Assembly: GCA_964575455.1 (NCBI GenBank)
Contig: CAZNRX010000002.1
Coordinates: forward strand, 35,539 to 99,538
Direction: 5' to 3'
Length of the DNA: 64,000 nucleotides
Source of the DNA: an uncultured Anaerolineales bacterium
GTDB lineage: Bacteria; Chloroflexota; Anaerolineae; B4-G1
The notes beneath the pieces were generated by a model that saw nothing but the letters and a program-made list of their open reading frames with translations, was not told the origin of the DNA and ran no database searches. The stretch's first letter is position 1; each line of letters begins with the position of its first letter. A program made the position numbers and the translations under genes. Positions 3,540 through 58,849 of the stretch are shown piece after piece.

Positions 3540-3564
3540 GTGATGAGACAAGGCTGTTAATGTC

Positions 3565-8507: not shown

Positions 8508-8512
8508 GCGTT

Positions 8513-9458: not shown

Positions 9459-9459
9459 T

Positions 9460-14279: not shown

Positions 14280-14299
14280 GCTGACCGCGAGGAGGAGAC

Positions 14300-15205: not shown

Positions 15206-15229
15206 CCCAGCAACGATTCCAGACATAGC

Positions 15230-38490: not shown

Positions 38491-38502
38491 GAAGGAGAGA
38501 GT

Positions 38503-41700: not shown

Positions 41701-43047
41701 GTGGATGCCACAACTCTCGGTTCTCGACTCAGAATAGACCGGGCTCACGAACAACTTCTGTCTCTGGGGCATCGGGATTGCTCTGAGACGAGCATAGATG
41801 CTACGAGGATGTTCTTGAACGCTTACCTAGATACCAAGAACCTTCTCCTCGCGTGTCCTCTGTTGATTCTGATGCCTATCATCGTCGTTCTTGGCCTCGT
41901 AGGATGTCTCTCTGAGCCCGAGACCGGCGAAGGTCTATCCCCATCATCAGGTCAGACGCTCTACGTCTCTAGTTCCTCCCATTGCGCCGGTCGACGTCCC
42001 TGCTATGCGAGCATTCAGGACGCCGTGGATGCTGCCTCTGAAGGGGATGTGATCAAGGTCGCACGAGGCATCTACACGACGACTTCAGAGTCGCAGGTGG
42101 TCAGCATTGAGCAAGGTCTCCGGCTGGTGGGCGGATACCGGGTTGACGACTGGTCTCGATCCTGCCCGACCGTCGAGCCGGCGATCATCGACGCTGGTCA
42201 GGTGTCGGGGCGCCGTGGCGTCTCTATCGATGGGAACGGTGTCTCGACGATCACGGTGAAAGGCTTTCTGATACGGCACGGGGGCGTCGGGGTATCCGAC
42301 GGAGGGGGTGTCCACGTGGCGGGTGGGTCGGTTGTCCTGGAGGACGATGTGATCGAGGCGTGCACCGCCGACGCTCGTGGGGGTGCTCTATTCATCGCCG
42401 ATGGTGACGTCCGACTCAGACACAACACCTTAAGGGGCAATGCGGCGCGGTACGGCGGTGCTCTCTACGTCGATGGGGGGAGCGTCGTGCTGGCGCGCAA
42501 CATCGTTATGCACAACGAGGCACCGCCGGTAGGTGGAGCGATTGCCATCAATGGGGGAATCGTGACGGGGACCAATGATGTCGTGGCCGAGAACGCGCTG
42601 GCGGGCGCGGGCATCTATCTATCTGGTGGTCACCTCACGGCCAGCCACTGGACCCTCGTCAACAACGGTCGCTACGGCATCATCGCTGATCTTGGTGTCG
42701 ACATCGAGAGCGGCTCGGTCACCCTGCATAAGAGCATCATTGCCTCGCACAAGGGGGGGCTTTGTGGGGCTGGCGTGGAAGCCCGACAAACCCTCTTTCA
42801 TCGTGTGAGTGATCCGTGTATCGCGGGGGCTTCATGCGTGAACAATCTCTTTGGCGACCCGAAGTTCGTCGATCCGTCGGCCGGCGACTATCACATCGCA
42901 GCTGGTTCGGCCGCTGTGGATCGGGGCTACAGCCTGGATGTCGCCCAGGATATGGACGGGGACATGCGACCGGTTGGGACAGCTTCCGATATCGGCGCCG
43001 ACGAGACTGAGCCGCACCGGGTGTATCTGCCGCTGGTGGTCCGATAG
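41701..43047 (+). CDS. Secreted/lipoprotein right-handed beta-helix protein with C-terminal VYLPLVVR motif
   Basis: Hydrophobic segment ending LVGC, SIQDAVDAA, GG-rich repeats, DPKFVDP..GDYHI...S.AVD.G, DIGADE; start uncertain (may be near 41810-41875). Confidence 0.65.
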   Translation: MDATTLGSRLRIDRAHEQLLSLGHRDCSETSIDATRMFLNAYLDTKNLLLACPLLILMPIIVVLGLVGCLSEPETGEGLSPSSGQTLYVSSSSHCAGRRPCYASIQDAVDAASEGDVIKVARGIYTTTSESQVVSIEQGLRLVGGYRVDDWSRSCPTVEPAIIDAGQVSGRRGVSIDGNGVSTITVKGFLIRHGGVGVSDGGGVHVAGGSVVLEDDVIEACTADARGGALFIADGDVRLRHNTLRGNAARYGGALYVDGGSVVLARNIVMHNEAPPVGGAIAINGGIVTGTNDVVAENALAGAGIYLSGGHLTASHWTLVNNGRYGIIADLGVDIESGSVTLHKSIIASHKGGLCGAGVEARQTLFHRVSDPCIAGASCVNNLFGDPKFVDPSAGDYHIAAGSAAVDRGYSLDVAQDMDGDMRPVGTASDIGADETEPHRVYLPLVVR

Positions 43048-43177: not shown

Positions 43178-44563
43178 ATGACGGCTACAATTCTGACCAT
43201 TGATGACGATGAGATGATACGCTCCTTCTTTGGCGATATCCTCGAGGAGGAGGGATATGAGGTTCTCTCGGCCGCGACAGGGGCTGAGGGTCAGACCATC
43301 TTGCGCCAGAAACCGGTGGACATCGTCTTGCTCGATCTGCGTCTCCCCGACGTCGATGGTCTGGTTATCTTGCGAAGGATCAGGCGGCAGGCGTTGAACG
43401 TTCACGTCATCGTGCTAACCGCCTACGGCGCTGTGCCCAGCGCGGTAGAGGCGATGAAACTGGGAGCGTATGACTACATCGACAAGCCGTCCGACGCCTC
43501 GAAGCTGAAGCTGGTTATCAAGAGGGCGCTCAGAGAGCTCGCCATGCAGCGAGAGATCGAGCGCCTGCGAGAGAAAGCCAGTGGCTACTCCGGGGGATGG
43601 ATCATTGGGGAGCACGAGGAGATGCGGCGCATCGCAAGGCTGGTCGATAAGGTGGCCAAGGGCAAGGCCACGGTCCTCCTTCAGGGTGAGAGCGGGACCG
43701 GCAAGGAGGTCGTCGCGCGTGCGATCCACGAACAGAGCCCTCGCGACGAGAGGCCCTTCACGCCCATCAACTGTGCCGCCATACCTGAGGACCTCCTGGA
43801 GAGCGAGCTTTTTGGTTTCGAGGAGGGGGCTTTCACCGGAGCGACGCGTCGCAAGAGGGGCCTGCTCGAGGTGGCCGACGGAGGGACGTTGTTCCTGGAT
43901 GAGATCGGAGAGATGCCGCCGAAGATGCAGGCGAAGATGCTGCGGGTCGTGGAGACGCAGACGCTTCGCCGCATTGGTGGGACCAGGGATGTCAAGGTCG
44001 ACGTTCGATTCATCGCTGCCTCCAATCGGGACTTGAAAGCGGCCATCGAGGAGGGGGCCTTCCGCGAGGATCTCTACTATCGCCTTGGGGTGGTCGTCAT
44101 AGATCTGCCGCCGCTCCGTGAAAGGATGGAGGACCTGGAGCTCTTCGTGGCGGCCTTCATCGACGAGTTCAACCGGGCGATGGGGAGAAGCATCGCAGGC
44201 GTTAGCAGGGAGGCCCTCCGGGTGATGAGGCGTTATTCCTGGCCGGGGAACATCCGGGAGCTGCGGAACGTGATTGAGCGCGCAATGGTGCTCTGCGAGC
44301 AGGAGGAGATACAGACGGCCCATCTGCCCGCTGAGCTCAGTAGGTCAGGGTTGCTTCCCGACGTTGATCCTGACGGTCTAAGATCCCCCCAAAACCTGCC
44401 ACCTGACGGTCTCGATCTCACGGACGTGGTGGTCAGCTTGGAGCAACGTTTCATTGAGGAGGCTCTGGAGCGCACCGGCGGGAACCAGACGGAGGCCGCG
44501 AAGCTCCTCTCTATCTCTCGGGATCAACTGCGGTACCGCCTTGAGAAGTACGGCCTGGTCTGA
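43178..44563 (+). CDS. Sigma54-dependent response regulator (NtrC/AtoC family bEBP)
   Basis: REC, GESGTGKE, intact GAFTGA, LFLDEIGE, WPGNIRELRN, Fis-type HTH. Confidence 0.95.
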   Translation: MTATILTIDDDEMIRSFFGDILEEEGYEVLSAATGAEGQTILRQKPVDIVLLDLRLPDVDGLVILRRIRRQALNVHVIVLTAYGAVPSAVEAMKLGAYDYIDKPSDASKLKLVIKRALRELAMQREIERLREKASGYSGGWIIGEHEEMRRIARLVDKVAKGKATVLLQGESGTGKEVVARAIHEQSPRDERPFTPINCAAIPEDLLESELFGFEEGAFTGATRRKRGLLEVADGGTLFLDEIGEMPPKMQAKMLRVVETQTLRRIGGTRDVKVDVRFIAASNRDLKAAIEEGAFREDLYYRLGVVVIDLPPLRERMEDLELFVAAFIDEFNRAMGRSIAGVSREALRVMRRYSWPGNIRELRNVIERAMVLCEQEEIQTAHLPAELSRSGLLPDVDPDGLRSPQNLPPDGLDLTDVVVSLEQRFIEEALERTGGNQTEAAKLLSISRDQLRYRLEKYGLV

Positions 44564-44881
44564 GCGCGGGAGTAGACGCCACTCCTGAGCAGTTCGACGG
44601 CGTGTGGATTTTTCCCCAACCTGGGGAAAATCTCTCCCATCCTCGCTTTCCGTCCCCAAAGAAGCACCCTGTGCTCTCGCTGCTCTTGGGTCCTATGAGG
44701 GGCATTTCGCCTCTTGCCGCTGCTGATCGGCTTTCATCTCCCTTTTTTGTCGGCTGTAACCATTGTCTCAGTTGGCCGTCCACGCATGTTAGGGCCTGAG
44801 TTCCTCTCTGCCCGTTGCCATTTTCTCAACTGATCATCAACACGATGACTTCTTGGAATCCACGCCCCTCGGGGGAGGGTC

Positions 44882-44896
44882 TGGCACGCTTCTTGC
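44882..44896 (+). promoter_or_regulatory. Sigma54 (-24/-12) promoter TGGCACGCTTCTTGC
   Basis: Exact TGGCAC-N5-TTGC, GG and GC 10 bp apart, about 50 bp upstream of the kinase ORF. Confidence 0.85.
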
Positions 44897-44946
44897 GACA
44901 ATAATAGAGTGAATCAACTTGAGTTCTGATCTCACAGGGGTATGAC

Positions 44947-47900
44947 ATGAGTTTTGAGATTTGGGTGCCTTGGAAGAGCTTAGTCTTTCTTGATCCGACT
45001 GGTATGGAGATCGCGCTTCTCGCCCTCACCGGGCTGGGGGCGATCCTGCTTTTCCTCTCCTCCCGTCGTGAGTGTGTAGAGGCCGTGCGATCCCGTCGGG
45101 GCGCGTTCTTGCTCGTGGGGCTCGCCATGCTTCCGCTGGTCACCACCCGCCTTCTGGCGGTTCGTCTCTCGGCGATGAGCCCGCCGCCGCTTCCCAACAT
45201 CCCGTTGAACCCCACGTTGCCCTTCGCGGCGTTGCTGACGGTCTGGCCGATTCTCGCCGCTGGGATCTGGCTTGGCGCAGGATCCGCGCTTCTGGTGGGC
45301 GGAGTCAGTGGCCTGCTGCGGGCCGGTACCGTGACCAGCGGCATCGCAGATCCGCTTCACCTCGCTCTGTTTGGCTTCCTCGTGGCTCGCCTCTTGCGGC
45401 AGCGGCGTCAAGGTTGGCTGGAGCAGTTGGCTCGCCAACCTCTTGCCGCATCCCTGCTGGCGACGCCCATTGCAGGAGGCTTGCTGTTCCTTTCGGCTTG
45501 GGCTCGCGTGGCGCACTCAGGGCTGGCCGGTTTTGACTATGCTCTGCAGTTCGCGCAGGTGCGCACCGGCGGTCTTCTGCTCGAGGCCCTATCGGCAGGC
45601 GCTGTTGCTCAGATACTCTTCTCCATCAATCCGTCGTTACGTCCGGTTCAGGAAGCGGATCGTCTTTCCTGGTTCCGCCGCAGCCTCCATCGGAAGCTCC
45701 TGGTCGTTGTGGTGCCTCTGATCTTGGTTACGACCTTCGTGCTCCTCTACGCTGTGACGACCGTGACGCTGCGCGGGGCGAGGGCGGAGGCCGTGAAAGA
45801 CCTGGCGCGTGACGCTCACAGTGCCGCTGATGAGATTCCTAACTTCATTCATACCGGTCAGGGGCTCCTTGCGGAGTTCGCCAAGGATGAGCGACTATCG
45901 AGCGACGATCGTGACGAGCTGGAGGCGCTCTTGGAGAGCGATCTTCGCATGGGGGCGTTCTTCGATCATCTCATGCTGTTCGACCCCGATGGAGAGCTGG
46001 TGTCCATGTATCCCCCGGCACCGACGGGCAACCCGGAGCTGACCGTTCAGGAAGAGGATCTGTTGGCACGGGTCTTGATGAACGGCGCTCCCCAGATTAG
46101 CTCGGGACATAAGTCGCATTGGGATGAGGCACTTCTGTCGTTCCTGATGCCGACAAGGTCGAGGACGGGGGACCCGTCGCGTTTCGGTGCCCTGGTTGGA
46201 CGCACGCATCTCCAGGCCAATCCCGCCATGGAGGGCATACTCGCAGATCTCCAGTGGGCCAGCGGCCGCGGCGAGGGGTTTGTGGTGGATGAGGGAGGAC
46301 ACATCGTAGCTCATCCTGATCCCGGCATGGTCCTGTCCCTATGGCAGAAGGATCAATATCGCGACTGCATCGCCGACGCAGGGCCTCAGGGTCTCGTCTG
46401 TGAGGGTCGCGATCCGGTGCGCAATACCCGTGAGTTGCTCTACTACCTGCCGGCTGATGGGTATCCTTGGTCCGTGGTGATTCGTCTTCCCTATGAGGTT
46501 GTCCTTAACCAGGCCAGAAAGGTCGCTGTGCCTCTGCTTGTGCTGCAAGGTGTCTTTGGAGCTGGGCTAGTGCTTGCCATTGTCCTCGTCGTCGGTCGTA
46601 TGACAGGCCCGCTCAAGCAACTGGCGAACGCTGCTGAGCGCATCGCGAAGGGCGGCCTCATGAAGTCAATCGACGTAAGCGGGGCCGATGAGGTGGGCCG
46701 GCTGGGGCTCACGCTTGAGGAGATGCGCGCGCGGCTTCAGGACCGCATGAGCGATCTATCCTTGCTCCTCGAAGTCAGTCAGGCGGTATCATCGACGTTG
46801 GATCTCTCAACAGGCCTTTCATTTGTGCTCGAAGGCGCTTTGGAAGGAACGAATGCCGACGTGGCGCGCGCTGTGCTCGTCGGCGATGGGAATCCCTCGG
46901 AGACGGTGATTTCCAGGGGGGAAGCCATCGAGGGCCTGGATGAGATCGAACGCGCTCTGGTCGCACAGGTCGAGGATCGAGGGAGCCCGGTCGCCTTCCC
47001 AGGCCTGGGAGAGGCTGCGGAGTTGATCAGATCCCAGGGGCTTGCCGGACCCATTGAAGCGGCCGTCGCGCTGCCGGTGTGCACCAAGGACCGAATGCTG
47101 GCCGTAATCTGGATAGGATACACAGGTGCCCACCGATTCGAGATGTCGAAGATGAATTTCCTGTCAATGTTGACCAATCAAGTAGCGGTCTTGGTCGAGA
47201 ACGCTCGTCTCTTCCAGGCGGTCGAGGGCGAAAGGACGCGGCTGGCGGCGATCTTGGAGAGTGTCTCCGATGTGGTTCTGGTCACTGACCAGGAGGATCG
47301 GGTGTTGTTGGTCAACTCTGCTGCGGAACAAGCGTTTGACATCAAGTCCGAGGCCGTCCTGGGCCGGAGGCTAGAGCAGACAGATCTGGCGCCCGAGGTA
47401 GTGGACGCCATCGTAGGAGCATCTTCCACAGAGGCGCCGTCGCGGGAGCTTTTGCTTCCCAGTGGGCGTGTGTTGTACGCCGATGTGTCCACGATAGAGA
47501 GCTCTCAAGGTGAGCAGTTGGGGCGGGTGGTCGTCATGCGCGATATCACGCGCTTCAAGGAGCTGGATGATATGAAATCCGAGTTCCTGGCCACTGTATC
47601 CCACGATCTCCGGGCGCCGCTGACCTTCATGCGTGGCTATGCTGATCGACTCGACGTGGTCGGCGAGCTTAACGAGAAGCAGGAGCTCTACGTCGAGAGT
47701 ATTCTGAAGGGCGTGCAGCGGATCGATGACCTGGTGCTTGAGCTGCTTGACCTGAGCCGCATCGAGGCTGGCTTGGGTGTGGAGAGAAGGCCTTGCCACC
47801 TGGGTGTGATCGTGGCTGAGGCTGTGAGCAGCCTGCGGGCGCGAGCGACGGAGAAAGGCGTCTCATTGCAGATCCAGCCTCCGCTCAACCTCTCAGATGG

Positions 47901-48309
47901 GGGAGGAGACGGCCTAGTCTCTGGCGATAGAGCGCTTCTTCGCCAGGCGATTGTCAACTTGCTGGATAACGCGATTAAGTACACGTCGCCTGGCGGGAAA
48001 GTGGCGGCAGGCTTGTCGATCAAGGCGCGCAACGGCAGGAATCAGGCTACGATCCACGTGACAGATACGGGTATTGGCATCGGGCCTGATGAGCAGGTAC
48101 GTCTCTTCGAGAAGTTCTACCGCACAAAGCGGGGCGATCAGTCGGGGGCTTCGGGAACGGGGCTGGGGCTGGCCATCGTTAAGTCGGTCGTGGAACGGCA
48201 CGAGGGCAAGGTGTGGGTGGAAAGCGAGGTGGACGCGGGCAGCACGTTCTATGTCAGCCTGCCGCTCGTCACGGATGAGTCGTTCAATGTGGAGACGTCG
48301 CATCAATGA
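44947..48309 (+). CDS. Membrane sensor histidine kinase (multi-TM, Cache-like, HAMP, GAF, PAS, HisKA, HATPase)
   Basis: SHDLRAPLT H-box, NLLDNAIKY, DTGIGI, GTGLGL; DEVGRLG HAMP motif. Confidence 0.9.
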   Translation: MSFEIWVPWKSLVFLDPTGMEIALLALTGLGAILLFLSSRRECVEAVRSRRGAFLLVGLAMLPLVTTRLLAVRLSAMSPPPLPNIPLNPTLPFAALLTVWPILAAGIWLGAGSALLVGGVSGLLRAGTVTSGIADPLHLALFGFLVARLLRQRRQGWLEQLARQPLAASLLATPIAGGLLFLSAWARVAHSGLAGFDYALQFAQVRTGGLLLEALSAGAVAQILFSINPSLRPVQEADRLSWFRRSLHRKLLVVVVPLILVTTFVLLYAVTTVTLRGARAEAVKDLARDAHSAADEIPNFIHTGQGLLAEFAKDERLSSDDRDELEALLESDLRMGAFFDHLMLFDPDGELVSMYPPAPTGNPELTVQEEDLLARVLMNGAPQISSGHKSHWDEALLSFLMPTRSRTGDPSRFGALVGRTHLQANPAMEGILADLQWASGRGEGFVVDEGGHIVAHPDPGMVLSLWQKDQYRDCIADAGPQGLVCEGRDPVRNTRELLYYLPADGYPWSVVIRLPYEVVLNQARKVAVPLLVLQGVFGAGLVLAIVLVVGRMTGPLKQLANAAERIAKGGLMKSIDVSGADEVGRLGLTLEEMRARLQDRMSDLSLLLEVSQAVSSTLDLSTGLSFVLEGALEGTNADVARAVLVGDGNPSETVISRGEAIEGLDEIERALVAQVEDRGSPVAFPGLGEAAELIRSQGLAGPIEAAVALPVCTKDRMLAVIWIGYTGAHRFEMSKMNFLSMLTNQVAVLVENARLFQAVEGERTRLAAILESVSDVVLVTDQEDRVLLVNSAAEQAFDIKSEAVLGRRLEQTDLAPEVVDAIVGASSTEAPSRELLLPSGRVLYADVSTIESSQGEQLGRVVVMRDITRFKELDDMKSEFLATVSHDLRAPLTFMRGYADRLDVVGELNEKQELYVESILKGVQRIDDLVLELLDLSRIEAGLGVERRPCHLGVIVAEAVSSLRARATEKGVSLQIQPPLNLSDGGGDGLVSGDRALLRQAIVNLLDNAIKYTSPGGKVAAGLSIKARNGRNQATIHVTDTGIGIGPDEQVRLFEKFYRTKRGDQSGASGTGLGLAIVKSVVERHEGKVWVESEVDAGSTFYVSLPLVTDESFNVETSHQ

Positions 48310-48323
48310 TCGGAGGGATAGAC

Positions 48324-48638
48324 ATGAAGATTACAACTCTCCAAGCCATCATGGCAGTGTGTATGTTCTTGCTGGGGCTGTCCTCGTGCATAGCTGGGTT
48401 GTGGACGATTCTATCAAGGCAGTATCAGAGGATGTTGAAGAGTATCTCCGCTCAATCGGCGAAGGTCAGCAGTAAAGCGGTCACAGATATAGGCCTGGCA
48501 CCCCTCATCGAGGCGATGTCGGGTCTCGTGGAGGCGATCGACAGATTGGTTCGCACGTCGATCGGCGTGGGGGTCTTCCTCTGTCTGGCAGGAGTGCTTT
48601 TGTGTGTTGCGTCCTTCTGGATGCTCTCGATGCTTTAG
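48324..48638 (+). CDS. Small two-TM hypothetical protein
   Basis: SD plus ATG, two hydrophobic helices, tight spacing within the gene run. Confidence 0.65.
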   Translation: MKITTLQAIMAVCMFLLGLSSCIAGLWTILSRQYQRMLKSISAQSAKVSSKAVTDIGLAPLIEAMSGLVEAIDRLVRTSIGVGVFLCLAGVLLCVASFWMLSML

Positions 48639-48647
48639 GAGACGCTT

Positions 48648-51600
48648 ATGATTGACATTGAGAAGCGAGAGAGCCGAGTCGGGCACCATCACGACTTGGC
48701 TGTGGCTCACCGCGAGTCTGGGTCCGACAAGGAGGCGATGGCCGAATACCGAAGCGCTCTCCATGAGGCGGACCACCTCTATGCGAGGATCTCTCTCGAA
48801 CTGGGTCTGGTGTTTCAGAGCCGCGGGAGCTACGAGAAGGCGTTGGACGCCTTCGAGCGCGGCCTGTCTCGCGTGCCGGATGAGGTCTCCTGTCTCTTCG
48901 CGGCAGGCGTCACGTTGAACCGGCTCGGTCGCTGCGAGGAAGCCCTGGGGAAGCTGGAACAAGCCCTCGATCATGATGTGGATCGAGCGGCGATCTACCA
49001 GGAGATCGGTCAGGCCTATGGGAGGCGCGGTTGGTACAGCGAGGCCTTACAGGCCCTGCAGCAGGCGCTTGAGTTGAGGTCGGCGCAGTCACCGGATCGG
49101 CAGGCGGGGTCGCGTGCGCAAGCGCAGAGACATCTGGGAGCGAGAAGGGCACCGCTCCATCGTGATACCGCTGCTGTCCTGAGCAAGCTCGGGAGACGTG
49201 AGGAGGCCATTGCCCATCTAGAGCAGGCCCTGGAGCTGCTGCCTGAGGAGGCCGCTGAGTCGCCAGCAGGCGGGTTGCCAACCGTTTACCTGACACCCGG
49301 GATCGCCATCAGCGCTCAAATCCCTGAGTCGGGAGCGGAGGTTGTGCCGACGCAGGCTGCCTGGCAGTGCGAATTGGGGGCGCTGTACGAGGATGCGGGG
49401 CGTCTGCGGGAGGCCGTTGATGCCTATCGCGAGGCTGTGTCGCTGCAGCCCAACCATCCTGTTTGCAACCACTATCTTGGTGCGGCCCACAGACGTCTGG
49501 GTGAGCCCAGGTCGACGGCGTCAACCGATGAGGCTGTGCGCTACCTGCGTCGTGCGGTCGAGCTCTCCCCGAATCAAGCCGAGTGGCGCGCCGAGTTGGC
49601 CGAGGCCCTGGCCGCTTCAGAGAGATGGAAACAGGCGCTGAACGAGTACCGTCGTGCCATTGAGATCGACGCTGAAGAAGCTCTCTATCATTATGGTGCC
49701 GGACGCGTGCTCCATCAGCTGGGCGACTATGGCCCGGCACTGCAGGAGCTGGAACGGGCCACGTCGTTATCCCCCAGTCATGCGGCGTCGCATCATCAGA
49801 TCGGTTTGATACACGAGTCTCAAGGGCGATGGGAGGAGGCGCTTGAGCAGTATCAGCTGGCATGTGCCCTGGCGCCGGATCAATCCGTCTACTACAGGGA
49901 TCTCGGTGTGGCGCATGGTCGGCTGCGCAAGCGTGATGGGGACGGTCGCTATCCCAAGGATGGTGATTATCCCCGGGCACTCGAGGCTCTGCGAAAGGCC
50001 GCCCATCTGGAGGAGTCCGCTGATGTCTATGGGCAGCAAGGGATGGTCCACGAGGACTACGAGGCGTACGACGAGGCGCTGAAGGCTTATCGAAAGGCCG
50101 CTCGGTTGGAGCCTGAGAGAGGAGGTGCCTATCGGCTGCGGGCGGGCTTGGTCTGCCAACGTCTGGGACGACATGAGGAAGCGTTGGAGTTCTTGACAGA
50201 GGCCTGTGACCTGCTGCCGCAGGACCCGACGTCTCACTATCATCTGGGCCGAAGCTATGATTGTCTGGGCAGGACGGATGAGGCTCTGGGCGCTTACCGG
50301 AGGGCGGCCAATCTAGCCCCTCACGAGCCAGTCTATCGGCTGGAGCTGGGACGCGCTGCCCACCGTCTTGGCCGATTGAACGAGGCTCAGAATGAGACGC
50401 GGCGGGCGCTCCAGTTGCACCACGATGACGCCGAGATCAGGGCTCAATTGGGGGCCATTGCCGACGCCAGAGGGGATCGTGATGAGGCGCTGGCTCATTA
50501 CCAACGGGCTGCAGAGCTGGGCCCCGACCAGGCGCGCTACGCGATGAAGGTCGCCGCGCTCTATCGGCGGATGGGCCGGTGCGAGGAGGCCCTGGAGGCG
50601 CTCGAAAAGGGCCTACGGGCGGATCCCAAGGATGCCGATCTCCACAATGAGCTGGGCAGACTCCACCAGGATCAGGGCGACGATGAGAGAGCGCTGAAGG
50701 CCTATGAGGAGGCTGTCGCGCTGCAGCCAGGGGAACCGAGGTACCATCGCAACAGGGCCTCTGCCCTCAGAAAGCTGGGGCGCGTTGACGAGGCAGCGAG
50801 CGCGTTGCGGAAGGCGATTCAGCTCGATGATGAATCCGCGGCAGCATATCACCAGTTGGGCGTTGTCCTTGCGCTTCAGGTAGATAGAGGCCATCTGCAG
50901 CGAAAAGAGGAGGCGCTGGAGGCCTTCCGGACGGCGCTGAAGCTCTCGCCGGAGCGTGCAGAGGCGTACTACGATTACGGCCGGTACTGTCAGCGCCTGG
51001 GCGATCATGGAGAGGCGATCAAGGCCTTGAAGCACGCGCTCGATCCTGCTGGCAACGAGCACGGGGGGCGCGACGATGAACGCGCGTCTCGTAGCCGCCT
51101 CGCGCGGGGCCTGGAACACCAGGGACATGATGCGACGCTGGAACGTGCAAGGCACCGGGACAAGCGTCTTCGCCGGTCAGGCTGGCCCGAGGCCTACTAT
51201 CACCTTGGCCGATCCTATCAGTCGAGGGGGGATACGGAGCAGGCTTTGCGGAACTACAGGCGGGCGGCCGAGCTGGCCCCTCAGGAGGCGGCCTACGCAC
51301 GTGCGATCGGTTTGGTCTATCGCAAGTTGGGCAGGATAGACGATGCGATTAGTCGGCTGGAGGAGGCTGTTGCGCTGCGGCCGGAGGATGCTTCGCTGCG
51401 CAGAGAGTTGGGCGACACGTTTGTCGCCAGAAGATGGTTGCCTGAGGCCCTAGATCAGTATCAGGAGGCGGCTCGGCTGGCTCCAGAGGACGCTGTCTGC
51501 CATCGAAGTGTCGGAACGACGTGGCGCGAGCTGGGCGAGCCCGCAAAGGCGATCGACTCCCTTGAGAGAGCGGTTGGGGTGAATCCCGATGATCCGGAGG

Positions 51601-54419
51601 CGCACTTTGAGCTGGGCCGGACGTACCGCCGCTTCGGCCGAGACTGTGAAGCGGTGGCTGAGTATCAGATGGCTGCGAAGTTGGCCCAGGAGAGGCCGGG
51701 ATGTGATGCCACTCCAGTGTATCATCTCCACCTTGCCGAGGCCCTGCACAGCGTCGGTGAGCGAATGGAGGCTACGGAGGCTCTGTCGAAGGCGATCAGC
51801 CTGGATCCAAGCGACGCTCAAGCTCACTATCGTCTGGGCGTGATGCTTGAGGAGGAGGGTGACCTTGAGAGAGCGCTTGCTGAGTATCGGGAAGCGTCGT
51901 CGATCCGCCCGGATCACGTCCGCTATCGTCACAGCATCGGCTCGGTTCTCTATCGTCTGGGGGATTACGGACAGGCCATAGAGGTCCTGCAGGAGGCATT
52001 GGCGCGCCCGCGCTCCCCCCGGGACGGCGGGGATGCCCATGCCCCGTTGGGGCACGCCTACGCCTTGTTGGGGCGCGCTCATGCGGCGTTGGGTGAGCAT
52101 CCCGAGGCCGTCAAAGCCTATCAGCGGGCGATTGCCTTGGCGCCAGAGGCCGCAGCTTACCATCGTGACCTGGGGTGTCTCTTCCAGGAGCTGGGCGACC
52201 GTGAGGCTGCTGCGGAATCCCTGCAGGAAGCGATCTCTCTCGATGAGAACGACGCCGAAGCGCATCAGGCGCTGGGCGAACTCTGGGAAGCGAGCGCAAA
52301 AGGGGACACGAAGGGCGCGAAAGATGGCGATGCCTCGGCTCTGGAAGCGGCGCTTTCCGAGTATCGTCAGGCGGCCGATCTGGCTCCCCATGCGGTGAGG
52401 AGTCTGCGGGCGTGTGGACGGGTTCTTCGCAAGCTCGGGCGCTATGAGGAGGCCGGGGAGGCCTTGGAGGAGGCTCTGAGGGTCGACCGAGAGCATGCAG
52501 CGTCGCACTATGAGCTAGGGCTCACGCTTGAGGCCCAGGATCAGTGTGAGGCTGCGCGCTCGCACTACAAGGACGCCATTGCGTTGAGCCCCGACAGACC
52601 GGAGTATCGCGTCCGATTGGGCGCTGTCTGGCGGAAGATCGGGCTAAGAGAGCGCGTGCTGCAGCAGGTGGGGGCGTCTGATAGGTGCGTCGCACCAACG
52701 GCAGGTGCAACGCACCGGGGTGAACGCGACCTCGACGAGGGGATTGCCTCTCTTCAGACGGCTGTGGAGCTGGGGGAGGAGTCACCAGCTCTCCATGCAG
52801 AGCTCGGCACACTTCTGTTCTTGCGCGGCCGCCTGGATGAGGCGGTGCCCAAGCTGCGCAGGGCGCTCGAAGCAGCGCCCGAGAACGCTTTCCCCCATCG
52901 GGCGTTGGGCATGGCCTATCGGGAAATCGGTGACTACGAGGGCAGCGTTCGGGAGCTGCGCATGGCGGAGAGCCTTGAGCCTGAGTCCGCTGAGACTCAG
53001 TATGAGCTGGCTCTCACGTTGGAGGGACACGAAGAGGAACACGAAGGGCACGAAAGGGGACACAAAGGGCGCGAAGAAGGACACGAAAGAACCGAGGTCG
53101 GTGCTTCGAAGGGCGAGGCTTTGGAGGCTTTCAGGCGGGCGACGCATCTGGCTCCATCCTGTGCGATCTATCATTATGCCCTGGGCGAGAGGTTGCTGAG
53201 AAGCGGTCGCTATGATCAGGCTGAGGCCTCGCTGGAGGAGGCTTTGAAGCTAGAGCCTGGTGTTGCCTCCTGGTCCGCCACGCTGGGTGACGTGTACGCC
53301 GAGCAGAGCCGTTATGACGTCGCCCTGGAGCAGTATGAGCAGGCCTTGGAGTCGCAGCCGGAGGAGGTGGCCTACCTCCATCGAGCGGCTCTGGCCCACA
53401 ATCACCTTGGGCGCGAGGGGCAGGGTGGTTGGCGTCGCAGCCGTGAGCTGCTGGAGCAGGCCGTGGCGCTGGATCCGGGCAACGCCGAGATCCTCTCCGA
53501 TCTCGGTGACGTCTACTACCGTCAGGGCCAGTATCGCGACGCTGAGGAGATGTACACCCGGGCGGCTCAGCTGGAGCCAGAGAATCCGTCCCACCTGCTT
53601 GATCTCGGCCAGGTGGCCATTGAGCAGGGCGAAACTGACGAGGCCTTGAGCAAATTCAAGGAAGCTGTTGAGCGGGGCGAGGACTACACGCCAGCGTATG
53701 AGCGCATAGGCGCATTGTACGAGCGGAAGCAGCAGTGGGGCAAGTCTCTAGAGGCGTATCGCCAGGCGATAGCCCTACAGCCCGATCATGCTCTCTTCCA
53801 TTTCAAGGTCGGCGGCATTCATAAGCACCTGGGCCAGTACGAGGAGGCCGCTGAACAGCTGGAGAGGGCGGTCGAGCTGGATCCCACGATGACCGAGGGC
53901 TATGGCCAGTTGGGCGAGGCGTATGAGGCCCAACAGCGGTACGACGAAGCGATGCAGGCGTACGAACACGCGATTGTGATAGCTCCGCAGGAGGCGGCTC
54001 ATCACGAACGCATGGGCAGGCTCTGTCGCAGGCTTGGGCATCTGGACAAGGCCCTGGTCCACCTCCGCGAGCTGGTCGAGCTCGATCCGGAGGATCCGAC
54101 AGCCTATTACGAGCTGGGTAAGGTCTATGAAGCCCGTGAGGCGTGTGACGATGCGCTGGAGGCCTACCTGGAGGCGTGCGAACGGGATGCCGGCGAGGCC
54201 GAATATCACTACAGCGCCGGCGTGATGTACAAGCATCTGAAGCGGTATCCGGAGGCTGCTGCCAAGCTGCGCAGGGCTATCAAGCTGCAGCCTGGTCACG
54301 CTGATGCTTACAAGCAGTGGGCTGCGGTGAGCGCTATGTCATTTATCTGGCGCGAACGTAGGGAGACGACGGGGGCAGGGAGCGGGGGAAGGGGTGGAGG
54401 TGCGTCGCACGCGGCTTAG
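48648..54419 (+). CDS. Giant tetratricopeptide repeat protein (1923 aa)
   Basis: Dozens of consecutive roughly 34-aa repeats (..LG..Y...G....A...Y..A..L.P); no signal peptide or catalytic domain seen. Confidence 0.92.
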   Translation: MIDIEKRESRVGHHHDLAVAHRESGSDKEAMAEYRSALHEADHLYARISLELGLVFQSRGSYEKALDAFERGLSRVPDEVSCLFAAGVTLNRLGRCEEALGKLEQALDHDVDRAAIYQEIGQAYGRRGWYSEALQALQQALELRSAQSPDRQAGSRAQAQRHLGARRAPLHRDTAAVLSKLGRREEAIAHLEQALELLPEEAAESPAGGLPTVYLTPGIAISAQIPESGAEVVPTQAAWQCELGALYEDAGRLREAVDAYREAVSLQPNHPVCNHYLGAAHRRLGEPRSTASTDEAVRYLRRAVELSPNQAEWRAELAEALAASERWKQALNEYRRAIEIDAEEALYHYGAGRVLHQLGDYGPALQELERATSLSPSHAASHHQIGLIHESQGRWEEALEQYQLACALAPDQSVYYRDLGVAHGRLRKRDGDGRYPKDGDYPRALEALRKAAHLEESADVYGQQGMVHEDYEAYDEALKAYRKAARLEPERGGAYRLRAGLVCQRLGRHEEALEFLTEACDLLPQDPTSHYHLGRSYDCLGRTDEALGAYRRAANLAPHEPVYRLELGRAAHRLGRLNEAQNETRRALQLHHDDAEIRAQLGAIADARGDRDEALAHYQRAAELGPDQARYAMKVAALYRRMGRCEEALEALEKGLRADPKDADLHNELGRLHQDQGDDERALKAYEEAVALQPGEPRYHRNRASALRKLGRVDEAASALRKAIQLDDESAAAYHQLGVVLALQVDRGHLQRKEEALEAFRTALKLSPERAEAYYDYGRYCQRLGDHGEAIKALKHALDPAGNEHGGRDDERASRSRLARGLEHQGHDATLERARHRDKRLRRSGWPEAYYHLGRSYQSRGDTEQALRNYRRAAELAPQEAAYARAIGLVYRKLGRIDDAISRLEEAVALRPEDASLRRELGDTFVARRWLPEALDQYQEAARLAPEDAVCHRSVGTTWRELGEPAKAIDSLERAVGVNPDDPEAHFELGRTYRRFGRDCEAVAEYQMAAKLAQERPGCDATPVYHLHLAEALHSVGERMEATEALSKAISLDPSDAQAHYRLGVMLEEEGDLERALAEYREASSIRPDHVRYRHSIGSVLYRLGDYGQAIEVLQEALARPRSPRDGGDAHAPLGHAYALLGRAHAALGEHPEAVKAYQRAIALAPEAAAYHRDLGCLFQELGDREAAAESLQEAISLDENDAEAHQALGELWEASAKGDTKGAKDGDASALEAALSEYRQAADLAPHAVRSLRACGRVLRKLGRYEEAGEALEEALRVDREHAASHYELGLTLEAQDQCEAARSHYKDAIALSPDRPEYRVRLGAVWRKIGLRERVLQQVGASDRCVAPTAGATHRGERDLDEGIASLQTAVELGEESPALHAELGTLLFLRGRLDEAVPKLRRALEAAPENAFPHRALGMAYREIGDYEGSVRELRMAESLEPESAETQYELALTLEGHEEEHEGHERGHKGREEGHERTEVGASKGEALEAFRRATHLAPSCAIYHYALGERLLRSGRYDQAEASLEEALKLEPGVASWSATLGDVYAEQSRYDVALEQYEQALESQPEEVAYLHRAALAHNHLGREGQGGWRRSRELLEQAVALDPGNAEILSDLGDVYYRQGQYRDAEEMYTRAAQLEPENPSHLLDLGQVAIEQGETDEALSKFKEAVERGEDYTPAYERIGALYERKQQWGKSLEAYRQAIALQPDHALFHFKVGGIHKHLGQYEEAAEQLERAVELDPTMTEGYGQLGEAYEAQQRYDEAMQAYEHAIVIAPQEAAHHERMGRLCRRLGHLDKALVHLRELVELDPEDPTAYYELGKVYEAREACDDALEAYLEACERDAGEAEYHYSAGVMYKHLKRYPEAAAKLRRAIKLQPGHADAYKQWAAVSAMSFIWRERRETTGAGSGGRGGGASHAA

Positions 54420-54464
54420 CTTCGCACGCTGGGCACGTGCAACGCACCGGTGGGAGGTAAGGAT

Positions 54465-56627
54465 ATGTCGTCAGCGACCAGGTCGACCCAAGATCAGGGG
54501 GCGAAGGTGGTGCAGGAAGCGCAGATGGAGGTGGATCGTCTGATCGCCACGCTCGCCAGCGACGGGCCGACGGGGGACACGAAAGACAACGCGAAGGACA
54601 CGAAGGACACGAGAGCGCCTGAGCACGCTGTGCAGGTGCCGTGGCCGGACGGCGCGTTTGAGAGCATAGAGCTTGGGAACACGAGGGACACGAACGGCGC
54701 GAAGGCACCCGAGGCGGATGAGCCTCGCCTGGCGAGCTCAGACACTGCGTTTGTGCATCTGATCATCTCCAGCAAACGAGCGCTGACGAGGAGATATGGC
54801 AGGCTTGGTTTTCAGCAGCTGGACAGCGATCTGCGCGACCTCAAACAGGCGATCGAGGCTGGGAGTAGGCGGTCTGGGGGCGGACTGCACGTCGGAAGTG
54901 AAAGCCAACCCGGGAGTACACGGCACTCCGGGAGTACACGGCACTCCTATGCTGATCTGGAGGTTATCGTAGCTTACGTCGATGATGAGGCGTCTATGGC
55001 CCGATTTGGGCTCCAGCCTGTGGATCCGACCAACCCATGGCAGGTAAAGAAGCTCGTGGACAGCCTGGATGCTCGGCTCGCTGAGCAAGGGGGGGAGGTC
55101 CGATACTTGCTGATCGTTGGCGGGGATGGGATCATCCCTTTTCATCGCTTGCCCAACCCGGTCGACGACCAGGATTCGGATGTCCCTTCTGACAATCCGT
55201 ACGCCAGTCGGGATGCCAACTATCTGATACCGGAGCGAGCGGTTGGTAGGATGCCTGATGGTGAGAAGGATGGCGCCGGATTCCTCCATAACCTCATTCG
55301 GACCGCGGCGGAGGCCCATCGTCAGTATGGGAGCTCCACCCAGGATAGCCCCCTCAGTGCGGCATCCAAGGGGTTGCTCAGTGTCTTGAGCGCAGTCCTT
55401 GACAGGATAAGACAGCCTGATAGGAACGGCCACGAGCTGGGGTATTCGGCCAGCATCTGGCGGAAGGCATCGCGTGCAGTTTTTCGCGTTATTGCTGATG
55501 ATGTCGATGTGCAATTGAGGACGTGTCCGCCTCTGACGTATGAGGGCTTCCAAGTCGTGGAATCGCCCCATCTCAGCTATTTCAACCTGCACGGTATTGA
55601 GGATGGGCCAAACTGGTACGGACAGCGGGATACTCTCTTCCCGGCTGACTACCCGCTCTTTCCATTGGCTCTGCGACCTCAGGATCCAGGCATCGATGAG
55701 CACGCCAACTCCGTGGTCTTCACCGAGGCTTGCTACGGGGCGAACATCCTGGGGAAGAGCGAGGGCGACTCGATTGCGCTGCGGTTGATGGGTGTGGGGG
55801 CGTTGGCCGTGGTCGGCTCGACTAAGGTCTCCTATGGCTCGATCGCTCCACCTCTGCTGAGTGCAGATCTCGTTGGTAAGCACTTCTGGGAGGGACTGCT
55901 GGTCGGGAGCAAGCGCCATGCCAAGGGGGTAGAGGACGCTCCTATGACGGTTGGCGAGGCCTTGCGACATGCCAAGGTGAGCCTGGCAAGCGAGATGCAG
56001 GAGCGAGAGGGCTACCTGGACGATGAGGATCAGAAGGCCCTTATTAGCTTCGTTCTGTATGGAGATCCTTCGCTGCCGATCACCTCGATTCACGTGGGGG
56101 CGGCGGTGAGCGCCTCGTCTGCTCGTCTCTGTTCTCCGATCATCTGTTCGGACAGGGCGGGTGTCTATCTCGATGCGGTCACGCCGGGGCTAGACGCCAC
56201 GTCTGTGCAGAAGGGTCTACCAGCGAAGCCTGCCTCGGACGAGCTGGTGACCAGGGTGAAGGCTCGCATTGAGACGAGCCTGCCCCATATGTCGCACGCA
56301 AAGGTGCGAGCGAGGCCGTTGACGATGTGCACCGTCGTGTGCGAGGACGGCGACTGTTACCTGTTCGATGAGGGGAGGCGAAGGGGGACGGGGGGGCGTC
56401 GTGCTGTCAGCACCTTCGACGTGCCGCTCTCGCTCGAGCAGAAGGGCTTGAACCGGGAGGGAAGGGGCTGGGCTCTGACGCTGCAGAAGGACATTGCGGT
56501 TAGCGAGTACGAAGGGGACATGCGAGGCGGCGGGCGAGATCGCCCAGGCCCCCACGCGCACCATCAGGTGGTCAAGGTGGTTGTGGACAAGAGTGGGCAT
56601 ATACTGAAGATGGCTGTATCGAAGTAG
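54465..56627 (+). CDS. Cytoplasmic peptidase C25 (gingipain/caspase-hemoglobinase fold) family protein
   Basis: YLLIVGGDGIIPF, SDNPYA, AVGRMP, FNLHG (His, 55590), TEACYG (Cys, 55731), VGEAL..AK, FVLYGDP; no signal peptide. Confidence 0.8.
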   Translation: MSSATRSTQDQGAKVVQEAQMEVDRLIATLASDGPTGDTKDNAKDTKDTRAPEHAVQVPWPDGAFESIELGNTRDTNGAKAPEADEPRLASSDTAFVHLIISSKRALTRRYGRLGFQQLDSDLRDLKQAIEAGSRRSGGGLHVGSESQPGSTRHSGSTRHSYADLEVIVAYVDDEASMARFGLQPVDPTNPWQVKKLVDSLDARLAEQGGEVRYLLIVGGDGIIPFHRLPNPVDDQDSDVPSDNPYASRDANYLIPERAVGRMPDGEKDGAGFLHNLIRTAAEAHRQYGSSTQDSPLSAASKGLLSVLSAVLDRIRQPDRNGHELGYSASIWRKASRAVFRVIADDVDVQLRTCPPLTYEGFQVVESPHLSYFNLHGIEDGPNWYGQRDTLFPADYPLFPLALRPQDPGIDEHANSVVFTEACYGANILGKSEGDSIALRLMGVGALAVVGSTKVSYGSIAPPLLSADLVGKHFWEGLLVGSKRHAKGVEDAPMTVGEALRHAKVSLASEMQEREGYLDDEDQKALISFVLYGDPSLPITSIHVGAAVSASSARLCSPIICSDRAGVYLDAVTPGLDATSVQKGLPAKPASDELVTRVKARIETSLPHMSHAKVRARPLTMCTVVCEDGDCYLFDEGRRRGTGGRRAVSTFDVPLSLEQKGLNREGRGWALTLQKDIAVSEYEGDMRGGGRDRPGPHAHHQVVKVVVDKSGHILKMAVSK

Positions 56628-56646
56628 GTGTGGGGCTCGAAAGACG

Positions 56647-57117
56647 ATGTTGATAGGTGAATTTCGCTGCAGCACTGACGGTGAGGGCCGCTTGATGATC
56701 CCCTCGGCGTTCCGTGACGACCTCGTCGAGGGCGCGACGGTGACGCGCGGCATCGAACGGTGTCTGTTGGTCTATCCTGCCACCGAGTGGCGGACGCTTG
56801 CAGAGAGGATACGGCGTCTGCCCCTGACTAATCAGTCTGCCCGTGCCTTCAATCGCTTCATCTTCTCGGGAGCTGCGGTCTGCCCATGCGGTCATACCGG
56901 GAAGACGAAGAGCGCGAAGGACGCGAATGAGTTGCCGAGCAGGCTGCCTTTGCCCGATCAGCTGCGCCGGTACGCGCACATTGAGGAGGAGGCCATCGTC
57001 GTCGGTCTTCTCTCTCACCTGGAAATATGGTCTCCCGAGCGGTGGCGGAGAGCCAAGTCCTCCTTCGTCGAAGAGGGCGTTGCTCTGGCGGAGGCGTTGA
57101 GTGAATCTGGGATCTAG
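56647..57117 (+). CDS. mraZ: MraZ-like transcriptional regulator
   Basis: MLIGEF...DGEGRLMIP..FR, TRGIERCLLVYP..EW, LEIWSPERW. Confidence 0.85.
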   Translation: MLIGEFRCSTDGEGRLMIPSAFRDDLVEGATVTRGIERCLLVYPATEWRTLAERIRRLPLTNQSARAFNRFIFSGAAVCPCGHTGKTKSAKDANELPSRLPLPDQLRRYAHIEEEAIVVGLLSHLEIWSPERWRRAKSSFVEEGVALAEALSESGI

Positions 57118-57194
57118 AACACGAAGACACGAGAGACACGAACTGGAAGCTGAAGAGCGCGAAGAGCACAGAATGGAGCAGGGGGAGGTCAATC

Positions 57195-58523
57195 ATGGGT
57201 GAAGTGATGAGGGGGATAGGCACCAAACACGAAGAACGCGAAATCTCGGGGCTGGGCGGCGTTCCTGAGCTTGTGAAAGGGTCGGGGCGGCAGGCAGCAT
57301 CTGATAGGTGCCCCGCACGCACGGAACGTGCAGGGCACCGAGGTGGCGCATCCATCAAGGTGATCGGTTTGGGCGGTGCTGGCAGCAACGCGGTCGATCG
57401 GATGATTCAGGTGGGCATCCCGGAGGTCGACTTCATCGCTGCTAACACGGATGCCCAGGCGTTGACCAGATCGGAAGCGCCGTGTAAGATCGTGCTGGGC
57501 GAGAGGTTCGCCGGCGGCTTAGGAGCTGGCGGAGATCCCCTTGTCGGAACTGAGGCCGCTGAGCGGAGCCGGGAGAGGCTCTGCGAGGCGCTTCGTGGTG
57601 CTGACATGGTCTTCATCGCCGCGGGAATGGGAGGTGGCACGGGCACGGGGGCCTCCCCCGTCGTGGCTCAAGTCGCCCGAGAACAGGATGCACTCACGAT
57701 TGCGGTGGTCACGCGGCCCTTCTCGTTCGAGGGGAGCCGGCGCGAGGCAGTGGCTGAGGAGGGGATCAGGCATCTCCAGAAGGAGGTGGATACCCTGGTG
57801 GTCGTCTCCAACGATCGGCTGCTTGACGTGGTCAACCAACGGGTCTCCCTGGACGTCGCCTTCCGCATCGCCGATGAGGTGCTGCGCCAGGGCATTCAAG
57901 GTATCTCTGAGCTGGTGACCCAGCCTGGGTTGATCAACCTCGACTTCGCCGACGTCAAGTCGATCATGGTCGGTCGCCCGGGAACCCGAAAGGCGCGAAA
58001 GGGATGTATGGGAGCGCTGGTATCCATCGGCTGTGGAGAGGGGAAGGACAAAGCGCTGGAGGCAGCCAGGATAGCGCTTGGCAGCCCACTCCTCGACGTT
58101 GCGTCGGTGAAGGGAAGCGATGGTCTGCTGGTCAACTTGACGGGAGGCGAGGATCTCACCTTGGCGGAGGTAGACAGTGCCATGCAGATGATATCTGGTG
58201 CGGCGATGCCGCACGCCGAGATCCTCTTCGGGGCTGTCATCGATCCGAAGATGGAGAATCGCGTTCAGATCACGCTGATCGCTACCGGCCTGGCGATTGA
58301 CGACGAAAAGCACGGAGAGAGTGAACGGCCTGGGGACGGGCGCCGCGCCGGGAGTGAACGCCACTCCGGGAGTAACCACCACTCCCAGCATCCTCGAGCA
58401 TCCACTCCAGTGCCGTTTGACTCGGCCGTGATGTTCGGCCCGGGCATGGGCCGCGAGAGAGGGCTGCTTGCGGAGGCTGTGCCGGCTTTCTTGCGCCAGA
58501 GAGAGGCTGGGAGGCAGGGCTGA
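57195..58523 (+). CDS. ftsZ: Cell division protein FtsZ
   Basis: [30 protein letters not shown] tubulin signature, INLDFADV T7 loop, C-terminal VPAFLR. Confidence 0.93.
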
Positions 58524-58525
58524 CA

Positions 58526-58849
58526 ATGGTTGAGATGGAGGATCGATACGTCGACAAGGCAAGGGAGCTGGTGCTTGAGAGGTTCCCGGAGATGGTTGGT
58601 GCCGAAACGTCTGTGAACACGAAGGGCGCAAGGAGCACGAAACGCGCGAAGGGGGCGCCTGGTCACCCTGGCTCTGCCCAGCGAGGTGGTTCGAGGCAGG
58701 CCGACCTCGCGGGCTCAGGGCCCTGCGGGCGGTATGTGATCACTTTTGAAAAGGACGTCTGCCTGCCCGGAGGCCACAGCCTGAAGCGATTGGTGCGCGT
58801 CACGATGGATAGGTCTGGAGAGGTGGTCAGAATCACGTCTTCGAAGTAG
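58526..58849 (+). CDS. Small hypothetical protein resembling the C-terminal domain of the upstream C25 peptidase
   Basis: ITFEKDV...LVRVTMDRSGEVVRITSSK vs LTLQKDI...VVKVVVDKSGHILKMAVSK. Confidence 0.7.
   Translation: MVEMEDRYVDKARELVLERFPEMVGAETSVNTKGARSTKRAKGAPGHPGSAQRGGSRQADLAGSGPCGRYVITFEKDVCLPGGHSLKRLVRVTMDRSGEVVRITSSK

Follow-up and report, generated by a model that had tools for sequence, protein, structure and literature searches.

Does the ftsZ gene that stands near the 3' end of an apparent sigma-54 operon in an uncultured Anaerolineales bacterium serve the ordinary division of the cell, or is it a second copy set aside for a special programme? The question is raised by a 64,000-nt stretch of contig CAZNRX010000002.1 (assembly GCA_964575455.1; hereafter the window), in which genes for a sensor kinase, a giant tetratricopeptide repeat (TPR) protein and a protease homologue run directly into mraZ and ftsZ. 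Anaerolineae are abundant filamentous bacteria of sediments, digesters and activated sludge, and to our knowledge almost nothing has been learned of how they divide. We mapped the open reading frames (ORFs) of the window, searched their products for Pfam domains and, by a hydropathy scan, for transmembrane (TM) segments, and compared the locus with its relatives. Our analyses favour, with a probability of about 0.6, a reading in which a broad clade of Anaerolineae, most of it uncultured, has its principal ftsZ locus here: a remnant of the cluster of division and cell-wall genes (dcw) that has lost rsmH and ftsA and forms the 3' end of a lineage-specific sigma-54 operon.

The operon lies on the forward strand, as do the regulatory genes that precede it. 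Its first gene encodes a sensor histidine kinase of 1120 aa (44947-48309), composed of a multi-TM N-terminus followed by dCache-like, HAMP, GAF, PAS, HisKA and HATPase domains. This is followed by TM110, a 110-aa protein with two TM helices around a soluble segment (48306-48638); a TPR protein of 1923 aa, with TPR family matches over its full length (48648-54419); a 725-aa homologue of clan-CD (gingipain/C25-like) proteases, recognised by its orthologues, fold and catalytic dyad (54450-56627); a divergent MraZ of 156 aa (56647-57117); a canonical FtsZ of 442 aa with Tubulin and FtsZ_C domains (57195-58523); and S107, a 107-aa protein homologous to the C-terminus of the protease (58526-58849). 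Intergenic gaps from the kinase through S107 range from -4 to 77 nt, with 19 nt between the protease gene and mraZ and 77 nt between mraZ and ftsZ, and the run stops at 58849 because a gene for an OmpR-type regulator comes next, on the opposite strand. Upstream stand rpoN (40188-41696), encoding a sigma-54 of 502 aa with Sigma54_AID, CBD and DBD domains and the RpoN box SRRTVAKYR, and a 461-aa NtrC-type activator, or bacterial enhancer-binding protein (bEBP), with REC, AAA+ and HTH_8 domains (43178-44563). The activator matches Sigma54_activat (239 bits), Response_reg, AAA_lid_14 and HTH_8, and its GAFTGA motif is intact at residue 217. Thus all the genes that a first-pass annotation, made from this sequence alone, had listed here (rpoN, activator, kinase, two-TM protein, TPR protein, C25-like protein, mraZ, ftsZ and a small protein) are present at the coordinates that it gave. 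We infer that the whole run is carried on one transcript.

Conservation of the arrangement provides the strongest reason to regard it as a unit. Nine further loci, fetched by exact protein, keep the order TM110, TPR protein, C25-like protease, P455 (a protein of ~455 aa) and/or MraZ, FtsZ and S protein. Those with proteases 61% (L002) and 54% (L003) identical to the window copy place a bEBP gene ahead of the same run, from kinase to S, that is found in the window, and L089 and L090 (47% and 51%) again contain that run. In L087 (46%), rpoN and the bEBP gene precede TM110-TPR-C25-MraZ-FtsZ-S and an M23 peptidase gene; in L088 (47%), kinase and bEBP genes precede a response regulator, TM110, the TPR protein, a TPR/C25 fusion, P452, P176, MraZ, FtsZ, S and a SpoIID gene, the M23 and SpoIID genes lying 3' of the operon. 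More distant loci, L005 (37%) and L086 (35%), share an upstream rpoN-kinase-bEBP group and a TPR/C25 fusion after TM110 and the TPR protein, and continue with P458 (L005) or a P455 remnant (L086) before FtsZ and S. In L086, a 384-kb contig, the giant TPR gene (5807-10004) and ftsZ (14210-15039) are broken into several ORFs, probably through frameshift errors of assembly rather than as pseudogenes. The orthologous kinase gene is the first of the operon in L002, L003, L089 and L090 and lies upstream with the bEBP gene in L005, L086 and L088. A bEBP orthologue (45-86% identical) is found upstream of the operon in relatives, and rpoN adjoins the bEBP and kinase genes in the window, L005, L086, L087 and several metagenomic loci.

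When JGI metagenomes were scanned with the alignment of the protease, 80 loci with a homologue 34-59% identical were obtained. In 50 of these ftsZ lies downstream on the same strand, 0.4-4.6 kb away; in four it is upstream on the same strand, 25 have too short a flank, and one is without ftsZ, so that ftsZ shares the strand of the protease homologue in 54 of the 55 informative loci. Between protease and ftsZ stands MraZ (22 loci), P455 (24) or both (4). The inverted order, in L126, L130, L134 and L146, has P455-ftsZ about 9 kb upstream of TM110-TPR-protease. Across the roughly 90 operon loci we found no ftsA, no rsmH and no second ftsZ. The synteny survey that the first-pass annotation had proposed was therefore strongly positive, and the operon that it had described, headed by sigma-54 and a bEBP and joining a TPR protein, a clan-CD protease, MraZ and FtsZ, is supported well beyond the single contig. 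As the linkage outlasts relocation of the kinase gene, exchange of MraZ for P455 and fusion of TPR repeats to the protease, comparison of the sequences argues for functional coupling across the clade rather than inertia.

Regulatory sequences are conserved alongside the genes. The sole exact match to TGGCAC-N5-TTGC in the window is TGGCACgcttcTTGC, at 44882-44896 on the coding strand; this site, with -24 TGGCAC and -12 TTGC at the correct spacing, lies in the 383-nt region between activator and kinase, 51 nt 5' of the kinase ATG, and predicts a transcription start near 44908. Shuffled windows are expected to hold 0.08 exact matches and contained at least one in 8 of 100 cases; a lone match is on its own weakly significant, and the strong evidence is conservation at orthologous positions. 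Exact sites head the operon in six independent lineages (the window, L002, L003, L086, L087 and L088) and recur where protease identity falls to about 34-60%. The operon of L005 is headed by a version with two mismatches, and many metagenomic loci have an exact or one-mismatch site 51-103 nt 5' of the TM110 gene. As chance alone would give about 0.08 exact matches in 64 kb, such recurrence cannot be accidental, and the exact sigma-54 promoter that had been reported at the head of the run is borne out by sites at the same position in relatives. A second exact -24/-12 site is found 11-56 nt 5' of the TPR-C25 ORF in eight distant loci, within or just past the giant TPR gene and directly ahead of the protease gene, so that protease, P455, ftsZ and S may form a sub-operon in these lineages. 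The eight are L122, L123, L124, L128, L140, L148, L167 and L169; the site in L005 is at 9619-9633.

Just past the stop codon of the activator, at 44603-44634, is a conserved palindromic element of the form TGGGGA-N4-TCCCCA-N3-TGGGGAAAATC, also written TGTGGA-TTTT-TCCCCA-ACC-TGGGGAAAATCTC, which includes a perfect 9-nt inverted repeat (TTTTCCCCA/TGGGGAAAA) at 44610-44630. The palindrome also follows the bEBP stop codon in L002 (~310-345), L003 (~400-435), L087 (~3515-3550) and L088 (~1865-1900), and lies 190-420 nt upstream of the -24/-12 site. It was seen solely in lineages that also carry MraZ, and for this reason is a candidate for either an upstream activating sequence (UAS), at which the activator may bind, or an MraZ operator.

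The FtsZ of the operon is fully canonical. Solved FtsZ structures align with it over its whole length, and it scores 162 bits against PF00091, 97 bits against PF12327 and 389 bits against the TIGR00065 equivalog (cut-off 295), and retains GGGTGTG at residue 146, the T7 synergy loop NLDFAD at residue 248 and the C-terminal peptide AVPAFLRQ, through which FtsZ binds membrane tethers; the corresponding motif, (D)[LIV]P[AT]F[LM]R, is kept in nearly all operon-type FtsZ. An N-terminal extension of ~50 aa (57195-57350) occurs otherwise only in P0121, its closest homologue. The remaining orthologues, 357-412 aa in length, do not have it, so the true start may lie downstream of 57195, in which case the gap to mraZ would widen.

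Sampling of its relatives points the same way as these motifs. The 120 best FtsZ matches (55-86% identical) are all Anaerolineae where named. All three homologues chosen through an FtsZ search alone (the window's own copy and two that are 59% and 72% identical) are in the operon, and so is the FtsZ of each of seven loci reached via the protease (57-75% identical). Cultured Leptolinea has P455-ftsZ-S without the TPR and protease genes and, together with the presence of mraZ beside ftsZ, this forms a chain of synteny from the operon ftsZ to an ordinary or ancestral division locus. Other Chloroflexota have mraZ-rsmH-ftsA-ftsZ, and the mraZ-ftsZ pair of the operon looks like a further reduction of this remnant. 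A genome scan with FtsZ peptide patterns returned, among the matches listed, only FtsZ of other lineages, at most 58% identical, and no orthologues; elsewhere in the window there is no ftsA, no second ftsZ and no further sigma-54 activator. We consider it quite probable that the operon ftsZ is the sole or principal ftsZ of the clade, and infer, from the loci, that it is the only one; the locus is more likely the main site of division genes than a spare.

MraZ departs further from its family. Both of its halves match PF02381, and it barely passes TIGR00242 (98.4 bits against a cut-off of 98.35). Its first DXXXR motif is intact (DGEGR) and its second is lost, being replaced by GHTGK with a 14-aa insertion that is common to the window and L002; DNA binding by the window protein may thus be altered. 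The E. coli MraZ sequence in this alignment gives orientation only. Several orthologues have D..GQ in place of D..GR, and in L087 the arginine of the first motif is a tryptophan. mraZ does not head a dcw cluster here, since the protease gene precedes it and ftsZ follows directly, and in more distant lineages it is absent and P455 takes its place. Of the canonical contiguous cluster (mraZ-rsmH-ftsL-ftsI-mur...-ftsQ-ftsA-ftsZ) only mraZ and ftsZ are found.

Identification of the protease depends on its relatives and its predicted fold. Pfam and NCBIfam scans returned nothing for the window protein (for Pfam, even at E≤10), nor for TM110, S107 or P219. More than 1500 proteins make up the family, and PF01364 is the domain precomputed for the 120 members listed with the best scores; the orthologues P0002, P0017 and P0106 score 46-53 bits against this profile (cut-off 23), covering profile positions 250-373 only. 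His381 (YFNLHG) and Cys428 (TEACYG), which form the clan-CD His-Gly ... Ala-Cys pattern, are invariant in an 18-member alignment reaching down to 38% identity. An AlphaFold model, with a mean pLDDT of 60 and a core above 85, finds its best Foldseek matches in gingipains R and K (1cvr, gingipain R, at E 1.6e-11, then 4rbm and 6i9a, to E 2e-9), with TM-scores to target of 0.52-0.58 at ~14% identity. Separase and Craspase TPR-CHAT follow in a second tier (E 5e-5 to 1e-2), and the profile of the family retrieved nothing significant from PDB sequences. The TPR protein, the 725-aa protein, MraZ, FtsZ and S107 all lack a signal peptide or TM segment by the hydropathy scan. Hence, on the PF01364 matches of orthologues, the predicted fold, the invariant dyad and the lack of signal peptide or TM segment, the 725-aa protein is best described as a cytoplasmic, gingipain-like homologue of clan-CD proteases, and not as a secreted gingipain. 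The first-pass description, a C25 peptidase without signal peptide and with an intact dyad, was right as to the dyad and the missing signal peptide; the C25 assignment comes through orthologues, fold and the invariant His381 and Cys428, and not from a Pfam match of the window protein itself. Translation probably starts at the ATG at 54465. In distant lineages ~200-340 TPR residues are fused to the N-terminus of the protease (for example P0059, P0110 and P0116).

The remaining partners are unannotated. TM110, whose TM segments span approximately residues 7-37 and 80-110, belongs to a small family of 79 representative clusters, ~100-115 aa throughout, and in relatives its gene always lies directly 5' of the giant TPR gene. 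The TPR protein consists of TPR repeats only, and its orthologues, of 1737-2218 aa, occupy the same position. In Melainabacteria, Obscuribacterales and Cyanobacteria (L015-L017, L019, L023, L024, L027, L034 and L035) a TPR ORF (~8000-9650) also stands directly upstream of ftsZ (~10001); with 22-31% identity to the window protein in tblastn, it is possibly an unrelated TPR division protein.

S107 is homologous to the C-terminal ~130 residues of the protease (58526-58849 against 56250-56627), the common features being an N-terminal helix and a beta-meander that ends in V(R/K)VxxDxxGxhhKhxxSK. In the window, L002, L003, L005, L087, L088 and Leptolinea (L037), the gene after ftsZ encodes a free S protein; that of L086 was missed by the motif search and matched by tblastn. 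The model of S107 (pLDDT 73) has a helix, a disordered linker and a four-stranded beta-sheet, the folded parts being confident. It has no PDB fold match at E<0.1, and a PepSY-like assignment was dropped on this ground. Presence of the S-domain both on the protease and on the protein encoded after ftsZ suggests, from sequence, that the two have a common binding partner or compete for one. P455 lies directly upstream of ftsZ in L037 (8576-9934), L081 (8549-9901), L005 (12517-13893) and L088 (12741-14099); it is found in Leptolinea and the distant operon lineages and not in the window. It matched nothing among PDB sequences or in Pfam and showed no homology to the protease; in L088, a protein with a SpoIID domain resembles it in its N-terminal part, at ~35% identity.

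How might such an operon work? The membrane kinase, with its dCache, GAF and PAS domains, would sense a signal and phosphorylate the NtrC-type activator, which would bind upstream, possibly at the TGGGGA/TCCCCA palindrome, and open the complex formed by the sigma-54 holoenzyme at 44882-44896. The single transcript would then supply TM110, the giant TPR protein, the protease homologue, MraZ, FtsZ and S. TM110 and the TPR protein could form a membrane-attached scaffold at the division site, and the protease, through the C-terminal domain that it shares with the S protein, could process a division component or an inhibitor, for which HetF and PatU3 offer a precedent. In its fullest form the proposal would make an environmental two-component signal, relayed by a largely dedicated sigma-54, the licence for division. 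TM110 and the TPR protein would have replaced FtsA as tether or scaffold of the Z-ring, and an S-domain-targeted protease, perhaps restrained by free S, would cleave FtsZ or a division inhibitor, in a checkpoint like that of separase and securin, or of HetF, on where and when the filament septates or fragments. We offer this complete scheme tentatively, as one that is more apt to fail than to hold in all its parts.

Several points weigh against regarding the locus as the principal division locus under sigma-54 control, and some of them lend weight to other explanations. Copy number was judged from individual loci, and a second, ftsA-linked ftsZ may lie elsewhere; co-transcription is deduced from spacing only, and promoters inside coding regions could give constitutive expression of ftsZ; the window's own protease falls below every Pfam threshold; and the scaffold and substrate roles proposed for the TPR protein, TM110, S and the protease are putative. 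The first-pass annotation had proposed a second, specialised FtsZ for an inducible programme such as fragmentation, formation of propagules or regulated cell death, and a housekeeping ftsZ would then reside with ftsA elsewhere in the genome. A cluster behind a promoter of the on/off type and without ftsA at any operon locus would suit such a role, and metagenome-assembled genomes labelled Anaerolineae do have ftsA near ftsZ (L009, L014 and L029, which may belong to other orders). In the tree of FtsZ that had been called for, built by neighbour-joining, the operon and Leptolinea sequences group as a clade separate from other Chloroflexota, and the branch that bears them is fairly long; a paralogue would look alike. 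The added divergence is small beside that of known FtsZ paralogues, since identity of the core to other phyla is 51% for operon-type FtsZ and 54% for the ftsA-linked FtsZ of Chloroflexota, a difference of about 3 points. Furthermore, the equivalog threshold is passed and the GTPase motifs, T7 loop and C-terminal peptide are kept across the clade; every close FtsZ that we sampled, by either route, is operon-linked; mraZ and peptidoglycan (PG) hydrolase genes flank the locus as they would a normal division locus; and Leptolinea retains P455-ftsZ-S where the TPR and protease genes are missing. A second FtsZ for an alternative or cell-death programme is therefore not supported, given a canonical protein, operon-linked close homologues, PG-remodelling flanks and the lack of ftsA or another ftsZ at these loci. 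We regard it as unlikely, and the annotation that proposed it, which itself held that an only ftsZ would speak against the idea, was probably wrong on this point.

A different objection accepts the identity of FtsZ and denies its coupling to the genes before it: ftsZ, with mraZ or P455 and S, would be expressed mainly from constitutive internal promoters of its own, and the sigma-54-driven TM110-TPR-protease group would do other work, for example in the envelope or in signalling. In model bacteria ftsZ has several promoters within upstream genes, the gap of 77 nt before ftsZ in the window widens to 200 nt in L088, and in the four inverted loci ftsZ stands upstream of TM110-TPR-C25. Such independence fits poorly with linkage in 54 of 55 loci despite movement of the kinase gene and the MraZ/P455 exchange, with gaps of 8-20 nt throughout L087, with the second sigma-54 site that in distant lineages precedes the protease and points at ftsZ, and with homology between the protease C-terminus and the product of the gene next after ftsZ. 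Over 43-60 kb, scans for sigma-70 promoters and for terminators gave counts at or below chance, and no sigma-70-like site was found on the forward strand between the -24/-12 site and ftsZ, which is weak evidence as the scan covers one promoter type. On balance we find this uncoupling improbable. Still less can be said for reading the operon as a system for conflict or abortive infection in multicellular bacteria, one whose TPR sensor, together with a caspase-like effector, would act on an FtsZ-type effector or target. TPR and caspase-fold proteases are common in such systems, where rare FtsZ/tubulin effector domains have been reported (PMC7159879), and Craspase TPR-CHAT is among the fold matches of the protease. 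PADLOC defence models, though, returned generic TPR matches only, inheritance is vertical with stable synteny over the whole clade, FtsZ is a full-length equivalog with its C-terminal peptide, and the neighbours are division and PG genes rather than mobile elements; we think such a system very improbable indeed.

The wider neighbourhood in the window and its relatives holds further genes. An FtsW/RodA/SpoVE-family gene (35522-36706) and a FemAB-family gene (28706-29863, reverse strand) lie 8-16 kb upstream of the operon, so that cell-wall genes are near it and outside it. Tandem class-I synthetase genes, one of the GlnRS and one of the GluRS type, stand directly upstream of rpoN (36778-40116), and a beta-helix protein that is not conserved is encoded between rpoN and the activator (41701-43047). 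At 14300-19579 a GGDEF response regulator precedes a hybrid kinase of 1449 aa that has four GAF domains, one PAS domain and two receiver domains. Downstream of cstA in L002 (17673-20863), L003 (17551-20394) and L090 (14633-17300) there is a DUF7990 gene pair, then two genes for ArsA/ParA-like ATPases and a small TPR protein. An Rfam scan of the whole window found no family.

Known systems resemble the operon in part. One is the mraZ-rsmH(mraW)-ftsA-ftsZ group, a compact remnant of the dcw cluster known from Dehalococcoidia and Mollicutes (PMC10608941) and seen in our comparison in L042, L011, L021, L026, L028, L036 and L056, in which, as here, loss of the intervening mur and fts genes has drawn mraZ and ftsZ together; Dehalococcoidia are of the same phylum, and FtsZ is canonical. 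In the Anaerolineae operon, by contrast, rsmH and ftsA are also gone, MraZ is divergent or replaced by P455, and the pair is the tail of a sigma-54 operon. HetF of Anabaena, a protease of the caspase-hemoglobinase fold, belongs to the divisome and cuts PatU3, an inhibitor of division (PMC8406250, PMC9457339). It likewise ties a clan-CD protease, acting conditionally, to FtsZ-dependent division in a filamentous multicellular bacterium, but HetF is a membrane protein that is not encoded beside ftsZ and acts at the FtsI step, whereas the window protease is predicted to be cytoplasmic, has a fold nearest to gingipains, and comes from the ftsZ operon itself, in which it is paired with a giant TPR protein.

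The gingipains RgpB and Kgp of Porphyromonas (MEROPS C25) are the best structural matches and share the His-Gly ... Ala-Cys dyad; PF01364 is matched by the orthologues and not by the window copy. Gingipains are virulence factors that are secreted and carry a prodomain, Ig-like domains and a C-terminal domain for the type IX secretion system (T9SS), whereas the window protein has no signal peptide and its C-terminus is the S-domain. Separase and TPR-CHAT (Csx29, of type III-E CRISPR) similarly join a caspase-fold protease to, or fuse it with, a large helical or TPR module; the match is at the level of fold only, a securin-like inhibitor or RNA-guided activation is not in evidence here, and a role in the cell cycle is an analogy. 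Regulation follows the plan of NtrC-family sigma-54/bEBP regulons, in which a kinase is matched with its REC-AAA+-HTH activator, the activator bears GAFTGA, and a palindrome lies upstream of a -24/-12 promoter. A survey found sigma-54 in only some Chloroflexi and division genes not enriched in sigma-54 contexts (PMC3162934); unlike the regulons described there, rpoN itself here belongs to the conserved neighbourhood of ftsZ.

Our literature searches found no published description of this combination, as the first-pass annotation had supposed, and comparison across loci supports the observation much better than one window alone could. The arrangement is a clade-wide variant of the division locus, undescribed in the literature searched, with unusual control and unannotated partners. 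The linkage points to uncharacterised components of the divisome at an ftsZ locus that lacks ftsA: a clan-CD protease, a TPR protein of ~2000 aa, TM110, S and P455. It also offers concrete, if putative, parts, namely a promoter, a candidate operator, a catalytic cysteine and a common targeting domain. If a sigma-54 promoter, served by a kinase and an activator of its own, does govern the sole ftsZ of the clade, a signal would control septation directly, which would be unusual for an essential gene and would fall outside the known themes of sigma-54 regulons. If the protease is indeed coupled to division, the operon would be the second independent case, after cyanobacterial HetF, of caspase-fold proteolysis joined to cell division in multicellular bacteria.

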